NCBI GenBank assembly: GCA_023705945.1
Contig: BPTM01000182.1
Location: 1 to 24,000, forward strand
Length of the DNA: 24,000 nt
Direction of reading: 5' to 3'
Source of the DNA: Candidatus Heimdallarchaeota archaeon
GTDB lineage: Archaea > Asgardarchaeota > Heimdallarchaeia > Heimdallarchaeales > Heimdallarchaeaceae
Below are positions 7,592-13,868 of this stretch, one piece after another (position 1 is the stretch's first letter; the number at the start of each line of letters is the position of its first letter). Below the pieces are notes generated by a model that made no database searches, was not told the origin of the DNA, and was given only the letters and a program-made list of their open reading frames with translations. The position numbers were made by a program, and so were the translations under genes.

Positions 7592-7900
7592 ATGGAATAT
7601 GTATATGCCGCACTAGTACTACATGAATTAGGAGAAAAAATTACACAAGCAAAAGTAAAAGGAATTCTTGAAGCTGCTGGCACAACAGCAGATGATTTTC
7701 GTATCAAAGCTTTAGTAGCTGCTTTGAAAGAAGTCGATATTGAAGAAGCATTGAAAACAGCTGTTATGTCCGCTGCAGCTGCACCAGCCGCAGCTCCTGC
7801 AGGAGCTGCAAAGAAGGCAGCTGCACCAGCAAAAAAAGAAGAAGTTAAAGAAGAACCTGAAGAAGATACCGACTTAGGCTTAAGCGCTTTATTCGGATAA
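7592..7900 (+). CDS. rpl12: 50S ribosomal stalk protein P1 (archaeal L12)
   Basis: MEYVYAALVLHELG N-terminus, Ala-rich hinge, and EEPEEDTDLGLSALFG tail. The track start at 7583 is the GTG inside the SD-like AGGTGA, so ATG 7592 is preferred. Confidence 0.9.
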   Translation: MEYVYAALVLHELGEKITQAKVKGILEAAGTTADDFRIKALVAALKEVDIEEALKTAVMSAAAAPAAAPAGAAKKAAAPAKKEEVKEEPEEDTDLGLSALFG

Positions 7901-7925
7901 TTCTTTCTTTTCTTATTTTTTCAAA
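7901..7925 (+). terminator. Oligo-T tract after the stalk operon
   Basis: TTCTTTCTTTTCTTATTTTTTC lies immediately after the rpl12 stop. Archaeal termination commonly uses T-runs. Confidence 0.4.
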
Positions 7926-7964
7926 AATTACACTTTTAAAATTTTTAAATCTTTATTCTTCTTT

Positions 7965-8282
7965 CTAAGTTTTCTTTAGAAAATCGTTGAATGCTTCAAC
8001 TATATCATTATATTCTTCTAATATTTGATAATCCCCCAAAGATTCAACGTCCTTTTCTATAGTTAAATCAGAGCTAAGAGATGCAATCCTTGATCTTCTA
8101 ACCTGCCCTCGACCATCAATTGATATGATTAATGTATGATCCTCTGCATGCATCAGAACGAAATTAAACAGCTGACTATCTCTTAATTCCTCAATTTGCT
8201 TTTTATCAATTCTACATTCCAGCATTCTACCACATTTTTCACAGTTAAATGCCTTTATTATGAATTGGTTTTCCATTTCCAT
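7965..8282 (-). CDS. Small CxxC...HxxxH protein (possible metal-binding), last gene of the GTPase operon
   Basis: 105-aa ORF starting 22 nt downstream of the GTPase gene on the same strand. It contains CEKCGRMLEC and HAEDH. I recognise no family. Confidence 0.5.
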   Translation of the reverse strand: MEMENQFIIKAFNCEKCGRMLECRIDKKQIEELRDSQLFNFVLMHAEDHTLIISIDGRGQVRRSRIASLSSDLTIEKDVESLGDYQILEEYNDIVEAFNDFLKKT

Positions 8283-8304
8283 TCTAGATCACTTTTTGGT
8301 ATTT

Positions 8305-8901
8305 CTAAACATTAGAGTATTTTGACAGTAGTTCTTCTGCTAAATTATCCTCTTTATTCACAATTTGATTAACCATATATTCAAATGGCTCAGAAACATT
8401 AGCTGAAAAGAGACCACTGACTAAGAAATGTTTGCGTATGTCATGAGTTTTCATAAAACCATGGATGTCTTCAACCGTTACTTCAACATTATCCAGATCT
8501 AATTTATTTCCAACTAAAATTTCAGGAACTTTAGGATAATAATGGTTTTTAAGATAATTTCTGGTAAGTTCAACAAATTCACCAAGATCAAGCAGGGTTT
8601 CAATGTCGGTTACATCGTAAACATACATCACACCTTTGACTCCTCGTAGAAACACATCTATCATAAATCTGAACTGCCTTTGACCAGCAAAGTCCCATAT
8701 CTGCAGAGTTACAGCTTTATCAAATTGTGCTATTCTCTTTATGGTAATATCAACTCCTTTAGTCATAGAAATTTCATTAGGATCAGTCATTTCTCCTGTG
8801 TAACCTTTGGATATTGTCGTTTTACCAACAGATCCTAAACCAAGCACAGCAACTTTCAATATGTTCCCTTGGTTAGTGTTATGTGGTTGTCTAGCTATCA
8901 T
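8305..8901 (-). CDS. Ras/Rab-like small GTPase
   Basis: G1 GLGSVGKT. Switch I TKGVD (compare Rab TIGVD). G3 WDFAGQRQF (compare WDTAGQERF). G4 GNKLD. SA-containing G5-like VSGLFSANV. No C-terminal CAAX or Cys lipidation motif. Confidence 0.85.
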   Translation of the reverse strand: MIARQPHNTNQGNILKVAVLGLGSVGKTTISKGYTGEMTDPNEISMTKGVDITIKRIAQFDKAVTLQIWDFAGQRQFRFMIDVFLRGVKGVMYVYDVTDIETLLDLGEFVELTRNYLKNHYYPKVPEILVGNKLDLDNVEVTVEDIHGFMKTHDIRKHFLVSGLFSANVSEPFEYMVNQIVNKEDNLAEELLSKYSNV

Positions 8902-8925
8902 TATATATCATATCCTAATAAATAT

Positions 8926-10266
8926 TTAAAACACCACATTTTTTGTGGTACCTGTATTTTCACCAGCAACCATCCCATGTAAAGAAACAGCTGAAAATAC
9001 TGGTTTGTTCTTTATTACAGAAAATTCTCCTCCAGAATATAACGTTATAAAAGGTACATCATTTCCAATCGCTTCTCTAATCATAACATTTTCTTTTTCA
9101 ATCTTATCTCCTGCAATTAGCAATCTATTACTACAATTTACAAACATACCAAAAAGTGGTTTTTCTATGTTCCGAGATGCTTTCATAGCACACTCAAACG
9201 CTGATTTTTGGATACCTGTACCAGATTGTGTGAAGAAATCTGCATTAACATTCTTCCTTTTTAACATCCTTTCTGGTATTGTGGTGACAACTCCATTCAA
9301 AATTGATTGACATATTGAAACATAGGGTATATGTTCTTCATCCTCTGAATTGAGTGCTGCTAAGTATAACAACGAAGCATTAGCATATCGTGCAAATGAT
9401 TCATTATACAGTTCCTCCGATATTCCAATAAGATCAAGAAATGCTTGACGAGCAGGCTTTTCGTTAATTTTTTGTATATATCCACTTGTAAGAAATTCTG
9501 AAACATCAAAATCATTCAATTTTTGCGATTTGTCAAAAGTCCAGTCAATGTCAAATTGCAATTTATCCGATGAAAAAAACGTTCCAATCATTGCATCTTT
9601 TAATACATTTGTTCCTTCAAACTGAAAACTTGTTCTCATATCTAAGTCAATGGTGGCCCCTCCAATTACATTGCTGATATTATTTTTTGCAAGAATAAAT
9701 AGAATCTCATCCGCATAATTTGCTGTACCAAATCCATTCTTACCCATGTTTTTATTTATGATTTTTCCAATTATATTGAACATTCCTTTAAATTTATGTG
9801 CAAAGAAAGTATCCAAAATTTTCATTTGTTCATATGCATCTGGTTCAAAGAAGGGACCAGCGGTTAGAAAAAGTCCCATTTTATTCTTTTGTTCGATTTT
9901 TTTATGACAATCCAGAATGACTTTAGCACCCTTCTTTGGATTTGTTCTAATGTTAGAGTAGGAGAAAGGGTTATGAAACTGAATATCACTGGATTTTATT
10001 GCCAAAACAGCGCATCCTTGTGTTGTTGGATATCCATTTGAGGTAGCAACTCCTGGAAATGTACCACCAACTATGTTTGATGTTCCACTTTCTTCACTTA
10101 ATTTTGTGAGTGCTTCTTTGTAGGCTTGTTTACTTCTGTAGTTTGGTGTAAAACCCACTAATAAGAAATCAGAAGTACCATTCATATCACCAATTACATC
10201 CTTTATTATGTTTTTAGTTACTTGATGTATGGATCTGTGGCTTGCGGTTCCTGTAGCTATTTTCAT
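8926..10266 (-). CDS. FIST-domain (FIST_N + FIST_C) putative sensor protein
   Basis: The N-terminal pattern DFLLVGFTPNY...NIVGGTFPGVAT...GCAVLAIKS matches the FIST_N layout. The C-terminal FITLYSGGEF matches the FIST_C end motif (fysyGEi-like). GAGGAG lies 5 nt upstream of the ATG. This is recalled family similarity, not a database search. Confidence 0.6.
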   Translation of the reverse strand: MKIATGTASHRSIHQVTKNIIKDVIGDMNGTSDFLLVGFTPNYRSKQAYKEALTKLSEESGTSNIVGGTFPGVATSNGYPTTQGCAVLAIKSSDIQFHNPFSYSNIRTNPKKGAKVILDCHKKIEQKNKMGLFLTAGPFFEPDAYEQMKILDTFFAHKFKGMFNIIGKIINKNMGKNGFGTANYADEILFILAKNNISNVIGGATIDLDMRTSFQFEGTNVLKDAMIGTFFSSDKLQFDIDWTFDKSQKLNDFDVSEFLTSGYIQKINEKPARQAFLDLIGISEELYNESFARYANASLLYLAALNSEDEEHIPYVSICQSILNGVVTTIPERMLKRKNVNADFFTQSGTGIQKSAFECAMKASRNIEKPLFGMFVNCSNRLLIAGDKIEKENVMIREAIGNDVPFITLYSGGEFSVIKNKPVFSAVSLHGMVAGENTGTTKNVVF

Positions 10267-10275
10267 ATAAACTCC

Positions 10276-10635
10276 TCACAAATTTACTGAGATCAACATT
10301 GATTTTCTTTTAGTTTCTATAGATAGAAGGCTTAAATTAGCTGTTCCAATTGCTAATGTTGTTAGGATTGTAACATTATTAACAACAGAAAACAGAACAC
10401 AGAAATTGTTCAACTCATAGGTTACTTTAGCCAAGTTGTTGGTTTTCATTTCAAGTGACACTTTTTCCACATTAGCTTTGCACCATTGAATTGTTCTGAG
10501 AATCTCATTGGAATGTTGTTCCTTAAACGCTGAATTAATCACGTTCCCATCTATTCGAAAAAGTATGACTGCCTCAACATCATCTAAATGTATCAAATCA
10601 GACAACTCTGAGGATATTCCGGTGCTATCATTCAT
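10276..10635 (-). CDS. Roadblock/LC7 (MglB-like) domain protein
   Basis: 119 aa with the typical pattern DDVEAVILFRIDGNVINS ... KVTYELNNFCVLFSVVNNVTILTTLA ... NLSLL. Its ATG overlaps the stop of the upstream KaiC-like gene (ATGA at 10632-10635). Confidence 0.7.
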   Translation of the reverse strand: MNDSTGISSELSDLIHLDDVEAVILFRIDGNVINSAFKEQHSNEILRTIQWCKANVEKVSLEMKTNNLAKVTYELNNFCVLFSVVNNVTILTTLAIGTANLSLLSIETKRKSMLISVNL

Positions 10636-11558
10636 TTTTTAACCTCTTGAAGCATTTGAGGATTGGTTAATGCATCTACAAGCTCAATTTTGTCTCCCTT
10701 TTCTTGTCTATCATTTAGCAGATTTTTAGCTATCTGGGCAATAATTCTCTTTTTTGGGTCCTTATCCTTTGACATTTGTTTAACTTTCTTCATTAATTCA
10801 TTATATCTAGTATCATAAACCAATGGTTCGTTATTATCTATCTGAATTGAACTTGTATCAATAGCAATACCTGGACCATGAGTAAAATGCATTGGGAAAA
10901 TGCCTTCATGATGGGCTGTTCTTCTAGACTTAATAATTTTACATGTTCTATTATATTTGCCTCCCAATCCAAGATTTTGAATGTGGACTACTGTATCTGA
11001 TAGATAAATTGGAACTCTTGTTTCCATAGCTCCAATATCTGTTTGTCCAAACGCATTAGGTTCTTCAACTGTTTGTAGAACAGTACCTAACGAACTTAGG
11101 TGCTGATAGATTTTTGTTAAAACCTTTCTTTGTTCTTTTTCAGATGGGAATTCCCATAAAATTGGAGTAAGTGGGTCTAAAATTATTCTTGTGTGCCTAA
11201 CATTTTTATGCTTAAGTTTTTGAGCTAAAGCAGGAAGTATGTTAGTCATAAATTCAACAATTTTCTCGCTCTCCACAAGGTGTATAAGATCTGTAAAATT
11301 CTGTGACACTTCCCTAATTTTCATTCCTAAAGCTTCTGCTCCTGCTATAAGTTTAGATGGTGTCTCTTCGAAAGACAGGTAAAGCGTATGATCTCCTTCA
11401 AGTAACCCTTGGTAAATATAGGCTAGAGCGAAAGTTGTTTTCCCTGTACCGCTGCTTCCTACGATGGAATTTATTGAATTTTTAATTATTCCACCTTGCA
11501 ACAATACATCTAATCCTTCAATGCCTGAAGAAATTCTTTCAGTAATTGACATATTCAT
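10632..11558 (-). CDS. KaiC-like single-domain RecA-superfamily ATPase
   Basis: ISSGIEGLDVLLQGGIIKNSINSIVGSSGTGKTTFALAYIYQGLLEG (Walker A), LYLSFEETP (KaiC catalytic-Glu motif) and RIILDPLT (Walker B). A ~60-aa Lys-rich helical C-terminal extension follows. Confidence 0.8.
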   Translation of the reverse strand: MNMSITERISSGIEGLDVLLQGGIIKNSINSIVGSSGTGKTTFALAYIYQGLLEGDHTLYLSFEETPSKLIAGAEALGMKIREVSQNFTDLIHLVESEKIVEFMTNILPALAQKLKHKNVRHTRIILDPLTPILWEFPSEKEQRKVLTKIYQHLSSLGTVLQTVEEPNAFGQTDIGAMETRVPIYLSDTVVHIQNLGLGGKYNRTCKIIKSRRTAHHEGIFPMHFTHGPGIAIDTSSIQIDNNEPLVYDTRYNELMKKVKQMSKDKDPKKRIIAQIAKNLLNDRQEKGDKIELVDALTNPQMLQEVKK

Positions 11559-11680
11559 CTATATTTTTACATGAACAAGCTAAATAAACTCCACAATTTC
11601 TTTTTAAAATTAAATTGGGCTTATTATCGAATTAAACGCAATATTTTATAAAGAAATAGAAATAGATATTCTCGAGTATC

Positions 11681-12439
11681 ATGACATCTCTCTTAGTTAA
11701 AATTAAAGAGCTATTTATCTCCAAAGAGAAAAAATTTGTTATTGCTCTTCATGAGAAGCTAGAAAATAAGAACTTTGTTAATCTAAAGAAAATCTCTTCT
11801 AAATTATCATTTCAGCAAAGATATAAGGTTGTCAATAAGCTCCAATCATCCAAAGAATTGCATGGTGTATTGCTTAGCGAACGAATGCTGTTTCTGTCTA
11901 TTGATGAAGACAACTTAGATGATTTGAAGGACAAAATAAAGAACATTGGAACAATTGAATTACTTGAACTAAAAGAACGATGGAAATTGAAAGATAATAT
12001 TTTAGATAACCTTCTACAACACATTGAAAAAGGTATAATTGGCAAAAAGGCCTTCTATACTCACAGATATCTTCAACATCATTTTATTGCTAATTTAACA
12101 AAAGGCGATGAACATGACCTTATACAGATGAGCTCAAAACTTGGGTTAGAAACGTCTATTATACTGCTTTTTATTCAAAAAATGATAGACGAAGGAGTAA
12201 TTTCTGGTGTGATAAAGCAACAACAGTTTTTTGTAGATTCTGAATCCTTTGAAACTTCATTTTCTGAGTATCTTGAGGAAATAGATGAGGATACATTAGA
12301 AAAAGAGTTCAGTGAGATAGCTCTAAAATTAGGCGTTTCATCTTTTGTGGTTGAAAAATATCTAATGAAATACGTTGAAAGATCACCTGGTCGCTTTGTT
12401 ATATATCCTCTTGAAAAGAAAGTAAGAATAAAGAGATGA
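11681..12439 (+). CDS. Protein of about four tandem winged-helix-like repeats; possible UFL1 N-terminal-like protein
   Basis: Repeated segments of the type LIQMSSKLGLETSIILLFIQKMIDEGVISGVIK and FSEIALKLGVSSFVVEKYLMKYVE. By eye these resemble the N-terminal WH array of eukaryotic UFL1 (VVNKL..K.L; G.I.LLELKE; YL..; ISG.I). TTTTATAAAG lies ~30 nt upstream of the ATG. Confidence 0.35.
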   Translation: MTSLLVKIKELFISKEKKFVIALHEKLENKNFVNLKKISSKLSFQQRYKVVNKLQSSKELHGVLLSERMLFLSIDEDNLDDLKDKIKNIGTIELLELKERWKLKDNILDNLLQHIEKGIIGKKAFYTHRYLQHHFIANLTKGDEHDLIQMSSKLGLETSIILLFIQKMIDEGVISGVIKQQQFFVDSESFETSFSEYLEEIDEDTLEKEFSEIALKLGVSSFVVEKYLMKYVERSPGRFVIYPLEKKVRIKR

Positions 12440-12584: not shown

Positions 12585-13010
12585 ATGGCAAAGAAGCTAC
12601 CGTGGATTTTTCCCGGAATTAGACGACCAAATTTCAGTTTGCATCAAATTTCAATTCGAATACCAACACGAATCCCTCGTAGTGTTCTCTACATATTGGT
12701 CTATGCGGTTGTTTTCTATATTTTTGCTGGTGGAGCATATGACATTGTAAATAGTGAGACCCTCATTAGTATAGGATCAGACGGGAATTCACCGATATTT
12801 ATTGCCCCTAATCAACATGCACAGTATCTAATAGAGGGTATTGTAGCAGGATTCGTTTTCTCATTTGCTGCAGCAAGTTTATACCTTTTTGAACATGCAA
12901 CAAAATATGCTTTTGATGTCAATACAGCTCAAAAAGTTGAATTAATTGCATCAGTGTTAATAATTGTTTGGTTTGTTGTTATCCTTCTACTATTTAATGC
13001 AAAAAGTTAG
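12585..13010 (+). CDS. Three-TM membrane protein resembling the OSTC/DC2 (Ost3/Ost6-family) oligosaccharyltransferase subunit
   Basis: 141 aa. By eye it is collinear with human OSTC as I recall that sequence: PNFSL vs PNLKL; YIFAGGAYDIV vs FLITGGIIYDVI; AQYLIEGIVAGFVFSF vs GQYIMEGLASSFLFTM. Length and TM topology are similar. Confidence 0.55.
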   Translation: MAKKLPWIFPGIRRPNFSLHQISIRIPTRIPRSVLYILVYAVVFYIFAGGAYDIVNSETLISIGSDGNSPIFIAPNQHAQYLIEGIVAGFVFSFAAASLYLFEHATKYAFDVNTAQKVELIASVLIIVWFVVILLLFNAKS

Positions 13011-13035: not shown

Positions 13036-13242
13036 TTATAATTGGAGCTTCCCAATATGTCCTTTTGTTGTCTCTTGATTTAAAAATAAAACAAACAAAG
13101 ATACTGGCATTACACTTTCATCTCCATCTTCAGGATCAAGTATGTAAGCATTCTTGCGAGGAGATGTGAACAATGTAGGGGGTGATGGGGCGTCCCTGTG
13201 ATGTGTCCCAGGGGCTTTCAAAGAGTTTGGTACAAGATTCAT
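13036..13242 (-). CDS. 68-aa protein carrying a fourth copy of the DPEDGDxS[IV][LM]P acidic motif
   Basis: Its ATG overlaps the RadB-like stop by ATGA (13239-13242). It contains ...KNAYILDPEDGDESVMPVSLF... (13105-13146), matching the micropeptide core at 2271-2769. The N-terminal half is Pro-rich. Confidence 0.45.
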   Translation of the reverse strand: MNLVPNSLKAPGTHHRDAPSPPTLFTSPRKNAYILDPEDGDESVMPVSLFVLFLNQETTKGHIGKLQL

Positions 13243-13868
13243 GTCATAAGTTCAATGCCTTGAGATGATAGAGTATAAAACATCTCTTGATTCTCATACT
13301 TTGCTTTCCATAGTTTCTTATTAACATGTTCAAGCATGATGTTGTTATCTGAGTAATTTGTTATAATGGAATTAGCGAAAGGACGTACTATTTTCAGATT
13401 ATTTTCTCTGAACACACTAACTTGATTTGTTAATACCACAGGTATGCTAAGTTTTCTACTAACCATTTGTAAATAAGCCATTTGGAGAGATAATGATTTG
13501 TTCCATTTCGTTTCATTTGCATTTAAAGAGCTGAATCTGAAATGATTTGTAAACCCATTTATTCCAACAAAAAGGGGTTTTTCTTTCTTAAAGAAACTGT
13601 GTAATTTCATTAGAATTCTTATTTGATTCGCTTTATCTAATGCTCTTAAAAGTATTATATTTTTAAAATCAATATCTTTTCCTAGAGTTATTTCACGAAG
13701 CCTTCTAGCGCTAAAATTTATTTCACAATCTAGAATTAGCGCCTTTTTCCTTTTTTTCAGCCCTTTGCAAAGATGATAGAGAATTGTTGTTTTTCCAGAA
13801 TTTGGCGGACCTGCTATATGTGTAATGCCATCTGATACTGTTGATTTTTCAAGAAATTTTGAAAGCAT
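13239..13868 (-). CDS. RadB-like RecA-superfamily ATPase (divergent)
   Basis: Walker A GPPNSGKTT. ALILDCEINFSARRL parallels RadB VAYVDTEGGFSPERL. IPVVLTNQV parallels IPVIVINQV. The C-terminal FYTLSSQGIE parallels FRITERGIED. At ~209 aa the size matches RadB. It lacks the usual N-terminal LDxLLGGG. Confidence 0.65.
   Translation of the reverse strand: MLSKFLEKSTVSDGITHIAGPPNSGKTTILYHLCKGLKKRKKALILDCEINFSARRLREITLGKDIDFKNIILLRALDKANQIRILMKLHSFFKKEKPLFVGINGFTNHFRFSSLNANETKWNKSLSLQMAYLQMVSRKLSIPVVLTNQVSVFRENNLKIVRPFANSIITNYSDNNIMLEHVNKKLWKAKYENQEMFYTLSSQGIELMT

Follow-up and report, generated by a model that had tools for sequence, protein, structure and literature searches.

Roadblock dimers are established as GTPase-activating protein (GAP) or guanine nucleotide exchange factor (GEF) platforms for small GTPases in the cases of MglB and Ragulator (PMC10933270). 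Among Asgard archaea, an operon encoding a LAMTOR1-like Roadblock protein, a Rab-like GTPase and a DENN protein has been described (Liu et al., bioRxiv 10.1101/2020.10.19.343400), and in MK-D1 the genes of small GTPases generally do not share an operon with those of Roadblock, longin or TRAPPC3 proteins (Tran et al. 2024, PMC10933270). Here a cassette of five genes from a Candidatus Heimdallarchaeota archaeon is analysed, encoding a KaiC-type ATPase, a Roadblock-fold protein, a FIST protein, a small GTPase of Rab-like type and one small protein of a new family. The stretch of DNA under study, referred to as the window, comprises 24,000 nucleotides (nt) (GenBank assembly GCA_023705945.1, contig BPTM01000182.1, positions 1 to 24,000 of the forward strand), and the cassette occupies positions 7965-11558. 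We consider the chances somewhat better than even that this operon of the Heimdallarchaeia is a cytosolic small-GTPase switch module with the signal path proposed below. Its features are as follows (lengths of proteins in amino acids, aa).

10632..11558, minus strand: single-domain KaiC-type RecA-like ATPase, 308 aa (Pfam KaiC, PF06745)
10276..10635, minus strand: Roadblock/LC7-fold protein, 119 aa (AlphaFold2 model, Foldseek, family profile)
8926..10266, minus strand: FIST_N and FIST_C protein without other domain, 446 aa (Pfam, scans of orthologues)
8305..8901, minus strand: Rab-like small GTPase with complete G1-G5 motifs, 198 aa (Pfam Ras, solved relatives)
7965..8282, minus strand: small protein with a putative C2H2-type metal site, representing a new family, 105 aa (alignment of the family)
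11559..11680, no strand: divergent A/T-rich intergenic region of 122 nt between the KaiC gene and a winged-helix gene (WH252), likely the operon promoter region (inference from sequence)
7901..7964, no strand: convergent spacer of 64 nt between the small gene and the gene of ribosomal protein L12 (P1), likely a terminator region (inference from sequence)

Like the MglA/MglB system, the cassette combines genes of a small GTPase and a Roadblock-fold protein in one operon, and the Roadblock model superposes on MglB and MglC. It differs from that system by the Rab-like (DxxGQ) type of its GTPase, by the FIST gene placed between the GTPase and Roadblock genes, by the addition of the KaiC and small-protein genes and by the lack of a motility context. 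Like the Asgard LAMTOR1-like/DENN operon, it is a conserved operon in which the genes of a Rab-like GTPase, a Roadblock-superfamily protein and a putative large regulator are joined. This regulator is a FIST and not a DENN protein, however (no DENN domain was matched in scans of the window proteins or of the FIST orthologues), the KaiC and zinc-type proteins are extra, and the cassette is confined to Heimdallarchaeia, whereas the DENN operon is found in most Asgard lineages. In Rag-Ragulator and TRAPP, dimers of Roadblock, longin or Bet3 fold likewise dock small GTPases, and a variant operon of Hodarchaeota, described below, carries V4R proteins of the TRAPPC3 fold. In contrast to these systems, the cassette has no Rag-type C-terminal domain, longin or Bet3 protein, and the eukaryotic systems have no KaiC or FIST.

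Archaeal KaiC-like ATPases were reportedly proposed as signal transduction hubs by Makarova, Galperin and Koonin in mBio in 2017. The hub proposal is taken up in a passage of a citing paper (PMC5847659). The cassette agrees with it in placing the gene of a single-domain KaiC-family ATPase beside putative input and output domains, but its KaiC protein is closer to the CI half of circadian KaiC than to the archaeal proteins of the SSO2452 or PH0186 type, and is restricted to Heimdallarchaeia. Mss4/Dss4 is a small zinc-binding Rab chaperone and GEF, to which the small protein may be compared by functional analogy only: it is small, beta-rich, probably zinc-binding and genetically tied to a Ypt1/Sec4-like GTPase, but similarity to Mss4/Dss4 is not detectable in sequence or fold, and its ligand set is C2H2-like as opposed to Cys4. 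A first-pass annotation, made by a model from the letters of the window, had named no characterised system of this exact composition. In agreement with this, no description of the five-gene composition was present in the literature searched, with the 2017 survey of KaiC hubs, where a prior mention is possible, lying outside that search. The large components all belong to known families, while their combination, the coupling of KaiC and Roadblock, and the small-protein family appear to be new.

Organization and conservation of the cassette

The coordinates and translations of the open reading frames (ORFs) place all five genes in one orientation on the minus strand, in the 5' to 3' order KaiC-like, Roadblock, FIST, GTPase and 105-aa small protein. 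They are separated by -4, 9, 24 and 22 nt, in exact agreement with the spacings of the first-pass annotation. At the first junction, the sequence ATGA holds both the KaiC stop codon and the start codon of the Roadblock gene. The KaiC start is placed two codons later by gene callers, giving a protein of 306 aa. Internal genes are preceded by Shine-Dalgarno-like motifs, namely GAGGT (119-aa gene), GAGGAG (FIST) and GTGAT (small gene). Only two sizeable non-coding stretches occur at the cassette. On inspection, the 122 nt upstream of the KaiC gene contain a Shine-Dalgarno-like motif, GTGGAG, with stretches of TTTATAAAATAT and TTTAATTTTAAAAAG upstream of it, and the 64 nt after the small gene are T-rich, with T-runs on both strands. 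A scan for promoters and terminators of bacterial type gave site counts no higher than in shuffled sequence. Judged by this arrangement, the five genes are likely to form a single transcript.

When a Roadblock profile was scanned against one genome per GTDB species, 27 Heimdallarchaeota genomes were matched and nothing credible was found elsewhere. Gene order was compared by tblastn with the window proteins, in loci long enough to tell. Every such locus of the 27 species genomes showed the WH252 gene beside the order KaiC-Roadblock-FIST-GTPase-small protein. In the main clade, the lowest identities of the five genes are 60, 57, 43, 56 and 41%, in that order. The start-stop junction of KaiC and Roadblock was kept across loci, including those of a divergent lineage, and gaps did not exceed 54 nt in any lineage examined. 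In GCA_030666915.1, which represents this divergent lineage, the same five genes occur in the same order at 30-47% identity with overlaps or gaps of at most 7 nt, while the flanks are unrelated (PolD small subunit, archaeosine TGT and purine genes). That the cassette stays intact at such identities between unrelated flanks is the strongest argument that it is a functional unit and not passive synteny. All five genes are also under strong purifying selection, with ratios of non-synonymous to synonymous substitution rates (dN/dS) of 0.02-0.11 against close relatives. All close homologues of the cassette proteins belong to metagenome-assembled genomes (MAGs) of Heimdallarchaeota or Heimdallarchaeaceae, so far as the searched sequences tell the cassette is found only in Heimdallarchaeia. 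Conservation of the gene order, which the first-pass annotation had proposed to check across Asgard and other archaeal genomes, held within the Heimdallarchaeia loci, and the cassette was not found in other Asgard lineages or other archaea.

Protein components

The KaiC-type protein matched Pfam PF06745 with an E-value of 1.7e-35 (122.9 bits, cut-off 26.6). Among solved structures, it is closest to the CI half of circadian KaiC (2e-37), and far weaker matches were given by archaeal single-domain proteins such as SSO2452 (1.7e-14). Walker A residues G34, G37, T38, G39 and K40, the catalytic pair E64-E65 and Walker B D128 are invariant across the 27 species, and E64/E65 and Walker A align with the FEE and GTGKT motifs of circadian KaiC. 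An arginine-finger motif K210-S211-R212-x-T214-x-H216 (x being R and A) is equally invariant and aligns, as K210-S211-R212-R-T214-A-H216, with KaiC KFRGTSH. Because Walker A, E64-E65, D128 and the KxRxTxH arginine-finger motif are all invariant, the protein is predicted to be an active, ring-forming ATPase and not an inactivated KaiC; its gene shows a dN/dS of 0.05-0.07 against close relatives. A circadian KaiC proper was ruled out, as the protein has one domain in 308 aa instead of CI plus CII (about 500 aa) with Ser/Thr phosphosites and KaiA/KaiB partners. It scored 72 bits against a cut-off of 546 for NCBIfam circ_KaiC, and neither kaiA nor kaiB was among the genes called in the examined neighbourhoods. 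Orthologues reach down to about 53% identity and the next matches are bacterial double-domain KaiC proteins at 31% or less, by which the orthogroup is seemingly confined to Heimdallarchaeia.

A KaiC paralogue of 58% identity was found in another context at L040:7001-8593 (GCA_016840095.1, the same MAG as locus L019; L numbers denote loci), and the orthogroup has therefore been duplicated at least once. FMN reductases lie upstream of this paralogue, as does a 313-aa gene matching Pfam APH, and the gene downstream looks by eye, from its translation, like an APH-like kinase fold.

The AlphaFold2 model of the 119-aa protein (mean predicted local distance difference test, pLDDT, 90.8) has the topology alpha-beta-beta-alpha-beta-beta-beta-alpha. 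The best Foldseek matches to it are MK-D1 Roadblock3, MglC, Thor Roadblock, MglB and LAMTOR, with a probability of 1.00 and template modelling (TM) scores of 0.72-0.83. A profile of 22 family sequences matched the Thorarchaeota Roadblock 7f8m over its full length (E 1.9e-4), the divergent orthologue of locus L042 passed the Pfam Robl_LC7 cut-off (28.9 against 23), and homologue P0038 carries PF03259. In a precomputed assignment, the window protein belongs to PF27410 ('AF0774'), a family that did not come up in the Pfam scan of the protein, probably because the Pfam copy scanned lacks it. Homologues of the protein carry the JGI name Roadblock/LC7/MglB; a literature search on AF0774 gave nothing relevant. 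On the strength of the model, the 119-aa protein is assigned the Roadblock fold, so that the earlier Roadblock/LC7 assignment is borne out by fold, Foldseek, family profile and L042 orthologue.

For the FIST protein of the window, FIST_N was matched with 29.7 bits (cut-off 23.2), while FIST_C reached 23.3 bits, just under its cut-off of 28.5. The orthologues show the tandem architecture of FIST_N (PF08495) and FIST_C (PF10442) more clearly: FIST_C was matched in 13 of 13 and FIST_N in 12 of 13, and the L042 orthologue scored 39.8 bits for FIST_C. The assignments of both the KaiC and the FIST protein thus withstood the profile searches. The 48 positions of the FIST protein that are invariant across the 27 species suggest a conserved site. 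A search of the FIST profile against PDB sequences returned neither FBXO22 nor any other match. FIST domains are said to have been proposed as small-ligand sensors by Borziak and Zhulin in 2007.

The GTPase matched Pfam Ras with 3.6e-27, and the best 60 solved structures listed were all Rab, Ypt or Sec4 entries, its closest solved relatives including Rab18, Rab3, Rab1, Ypt1, Sec4 and a Thorarchaeota Rab. Residues G21, G23, G26, K27 and T28 of the P-loop, T47, D70, G73, Q74, K133, D135, S162 and G163 are invariant across the 27 species, and dN/dS against close relatives is as low as 0.02-0.03. Switch II reads WDFAGQ and is of the DxxGQ type with D70 invariant, and no arginine is found around T47. 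As DxxGQ stands in place of TxxGQ and an intrinsic switch I arginine is missing, identity with MglA was ruled out. The view of the first-pass annotation that the protein is Ras/Rab-like rather than MglA-like is thus supported by Pfam Ras, the Rab-type solved matches and DxxGQ, and the motifs that it quoted are present in the translations (TKGVD, WDFAGQ and GNKLD in the GTPase, CxxC in the small protein). A match to Pfam Gtr1_RagA (4.3e-6) covered residues 16-135 only; a Rag/Gtr identity was ruled out, since the protein ends at 198 aa, just past the G domain, without the C-terminal Roadblock dimerisation domain. Its C-terminus (...LLSKYSNV) lacks cysteine, hence a prenylation motif is absent.

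No relative of the 105-aa protein was found in Pfam, NCBIfam or PDB sequences, or among the best 50 matches listed by Foldseek for its model against PDB. A profile search of 1.84 billion cluster representatives returned only 10 matches, and a metagenome scan with a reduced alignment of the family gave 2 loci; by these searches it is a rare new family. Throughout the family, which extends to members of 120-300 aa, C14, C17, L38, H45, H49, D56, G59 and R62 do not vary, and the core motif is QLFNFVLMHAxDHTLIxSxDxRGxIRR. The four metal-ligand candidates C14, C17, H45 and H49 are kept in all members, even the most divergent, which suggests a C2H2-like metal site of zinc type. The AlphaFold2 model shows five strands and, besides a linker that is disordered, a helix at the C-terminus. 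A relationship to Roadblock was ruled out by hhalign (probability 0.1). Identity with Mss4 (PF04421) was likewise rejected, as 14 family members gave no match at E<=1 and the family profile none against PDB; Mss4 was also absent from the best 50 Foldseek matches listed for the model.

Wherever a contig holds sequence upstream of a gene of this family, a related GTPase gene lies directly upstream. In Hodarchaeota and Wukongarchaeota the pair occurs in a variant operon with the order GTPase, zinc-domain protein, V4R, V4R and 195-aa protein, without KaiC, Roadblock or FIST, as in GCA_048886645.1 (Candidatus Hodarchaeota, L050:8417-11824) and likewise in L044 and L051. It encodes a Rab-like GTPase of 196 aa (38% identity), a 300-aa protein with the CxxC...HAxDH region at its N-terminus, V4R proteins of 187 and 235 aa, and an unknown protein of 195 aa; between the first two genes, stop and start codon overlap. 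The fold of V4R is also that of TRAPPC3 (PMC10933270), and the variant may be a proto-TRAPP-like GTPase module. No PDB sequence was matched by the V4R protein of L050. On visual inspection, the extra C-terminal 200 aa or so of the Hodarchaeota homologue P0216 resembled a Roadblock domain; no match resulted from hhalign with the Roadblock profile or from a scan of Pfam.

As the GTPase and the small protein are kept together where KaiC, Roadblock and FIST are absent, the gene orders mark this pair as the most persistent part of the cassette, with a set of regulators that varies by lineage. The small protein had been described at first as a possible metal-binding effector. Metal binding fits the invariant C14, C17, H45 and H49, but the protein is not an add-on, being half of the pair that is the tightest and most persistent in the data. 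In the divergent lineage, a 104-aa gene without Pfam match lies just downstream of the small-protein gene (L042:8690-9004 and L046:808-1116, 82% identity) and may be a sixth member of the cassette there.

Gene neighbourhood

The genes around the cassette in the window encode ribosomal proteins L1-L10-L12, a UFL1/DDRGK-like winged-helix protein, OST3/6, a Rad51/RadB-like ATPase, NAD synthase and RPA, and they fit a Heimdallarchaeial origin. The winged-helix gene adjoins the cassette:

11681..12439, plus strand: WH252, 252-aa winged-helix protein, UFL1/DDRGK/PCI-like (Pfam)

WH252 matched Pfam E3_UFM1_ligase with 27.4 bits (cut-off 23.2), and DDRGK and PCI below their cut-offs. Its gene adjoins the KaiC gene in all main-clade loci, mostly in divergent and in L009, L010 and L032 in the same orientation, and the divergent L042 cassette lacks it. 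Its evolution is rapid (29-88% identity, dN/dS 0.17-0.20). WH252 is taken here as a clade-specific neighbour with a possible accessory or regulatory role, and not as a universal member of the cassette.

On the other side, the ribosomal stalk set L12-L10-L1 lies directly downstream in most genomes in convergent orientation (window 5883-7900, plus strand). EF-1alpha takes this place in Heimdallarchaeum, L009 and L052, in the last case co-oriented, the genes being located at L007:10695-11978, L009:10666-11949 and L052:2589-3872. The presence of these neighbours related to translation GTPases may be coincidental synteny.

An OST3/6 homologue above the Pfam cut-off is encoded at 12585-13010 of the window (plus strand), a 354-aa protein at 15404-16468 (plus strand) has a sub-threshold OST48_N match (E 9e-4), and STT3 is found near the cassette in L007, L009 and L052. 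Taken together, these genes place eukaryote-type oligosaccharyltransferase subunits in a loose group next to the cassette. A 68-aa ORF at 13036-13242 (minus strand) overlaps by 4 nt with the stop of the Rad51/RadB-like ATPase gene (13239-13868, minus strand); it is among the called genes of every related contig and matched no family. Two large ORFs, of 528 aa (607-2193, minus strand) and 967 aa (2918-5800, plus strand), are without any Pfam match, and a 960-aa protein (20193-23096, minus strand) has a HerA/DUF87 and TrwB-like ATPase domain in its middle part only.

Proposed mechanism and alternatives

In the reading preferred here, a signal path would lead from the sensor through the ATPase and the Roadblock protein to the GTPase and the zinc-type protein. 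The roles suggested in the first-pass annotation, namely sensor, timer or scaffold, GAP/GEF and effector, are presumptive in the same way as the direction of the signal. The core would consist of two proteins, the Rab-like GTPase and its small and probably zinc-binding companion, the latter serving as an obligate partner of the GTPase, be it as an effector, as a chaperone of its nucleotide state or as a GAP with the invariant R62/R63 as candidate finger residues. By analogy with MglB and Ragulator-type platforms, a homodimer of the Roadblock protein would bind to the GTPase and control the nucleotide state of the latter. Since the Roadblock gene is presumably translationally coupled to that of the KaiC-type protein, a stoichiometric KaiC-Roadblock complex is suggested, in which the Roadblock protein would probably be bound to a hexameric ATPase. 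The ATPase cycle or the autophosphorylation state of the KaiC-type protein could then gate the availability of Roadblock, and the FIST protein would provide input via a small ligand or a partner protein.

Several observations weigh against this reading. The GTPase has no lipid-anchor motif, and a membrane role of the Rab type is not implied. To our knowledge, no ligand of a FIST protein has been proven in archaea. The Roadblock protein of the window itself was not matched by Robl_LC7 (PF03259) in the Pfam scan, nor by any NCBIfam family. Metal binding by the small protein is read from the four invariant residues, and its model is of moderate confidence (pLDDT 69). Finally, the genes of WH252, OST3/6 and the RadB-like ATPase are syntenic in the main clade as well, so that part of the conserved order is due to vertical inheritance.

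This last observation, together with the syntenic ribosomal protein genes, would be expected if the cassette were mere conserved synteny through vertical descent, or in a variant of that view a mobile defence island. We regard this as very improbable, because the cassette survives with wholly different flanks at 30-47% identity, with overlapping start and stop codons and with short gaps in every lineage examined; as to the island, it sits among core genes, and PADLOC gave no defence family beyond a weak P-loop match. A polarity or motility module of the MglA/MglB type, in which a polarity GTPase would have the Roadblock protein as its GAP and the KaiC-like protein would act in the manner of ArlH on a pilus or archaellum motor, is decidedly unlikely too. 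The TM scores of 0.76-0.83 between the Roadblock model and MglB/MglC, weak ArlH/FlaH matches of the KaiC-like protein and the frequent occurrence of Roadblock genes in archaeal type IV pilus loci (PMC4858521) are in line with such a module. Yet the GTPase has DxxGQ and Rab-type best matches in place of the MglA signature, the NCBIfam ArlH match (2.7e-11) with its 43.6 bits lies far below the cut-off of 215, and no pilin, ArlI/J or other motility gene was present in the examined neighbourhoods.

Two further explanations draw on the eukaryotic systems, and we give each of them a low probability. The cassette might be a nutrient sensor similar to Rag/Ragulator, in which an amino acid or metabolite would be detected by FIST and the signal passed on to translation or growth control through the Roadblock-GTPase pair. 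This would agree with the resemblance of the Roadblock model to LAMTOR subunits, with the Gtr1_RagA match and with the stalk genes or EF-1alpha as neighbours in several lineages; against it, the GTPase of 198 aa lacks the C-terminal Roadblock domain that defines Rag proteins and scores far higher as a Rab, and the translation genes mostly run convergently to the cassette instead of being co-transcribed with it, and none lies beside the L042 cassette. The cassette may instead represent a proto-Rab exchange or chaperone system, also an unlikely case, where the small protein together with Roadblock (here) or V4R (Hodarchaeota) would be the GEF or chaperone of a Ypt1/Rab1-like GTPase, and KaiC and FIST would be lineage-specific. 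Ypt1, Rab1, Rab18 and Sec4 are indeed among the closest solved relatives of the GTPase, and the variant operon of Hodarchaeota and Wukongarchaeota joins a GTPase and a zinc-domain protein to two V4R proteins of the TRAPPC3 fold; Mss4/Dss4, as a small zinc-binding Rab chaperone, offers a functional analogy. The small protein, however, matches neither Mss4 nor longin domains in sequence or fold, the window cassette has no V4R gene and its GTPase no prenylation motif, and the Hodarchaeota GTPase is only a putative orthologue at 38% identity. A broader and rather doubtful proposal is that an ancestral regulatory core of Heimdallarchaeia, made up of the Rab-like GTPase and the zinc-type small protein, is combined with interchangeable regulators, namely KaiC-Roadblock-FIST in genomes of the Heimdallarchaeaceae type and V4R/TRAPPC3-fold proteins in Hodarchaeota and Wukongarchaeota. 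The cassette would then be an archaeal forerunner of the TRAPP- or Mss4-like GEF and chaperone complexes of eukaryotic Rab proteins, equipped here with an ATP-driven KaiC timer and a metabolite sensor.

Implications

In Asgard genomes, small GTPases and Roadblock or longin proteins number in the dozens, and matching a GTPase to its regulators is hard because such genes are generally not arranged in operons (PMC10933270). The cassette is a strictly conserved exception, in a lineage usually placed closest to the eukaryotes, and it singles out a Rab-like GTPase together with one protein each of the Roadblock, KaiC, FIST and new zinc-type families, a set that lends itself to joint expression and testing. 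If the proposed signal path is true, it would be the first concrete wiring for KaiC-like ATPases as signalling hubs in archaea. The link of the small protein to V4R/TRAPPC3-fold proteins in Hodarchaeota also bears on the origin of Rab regulation.

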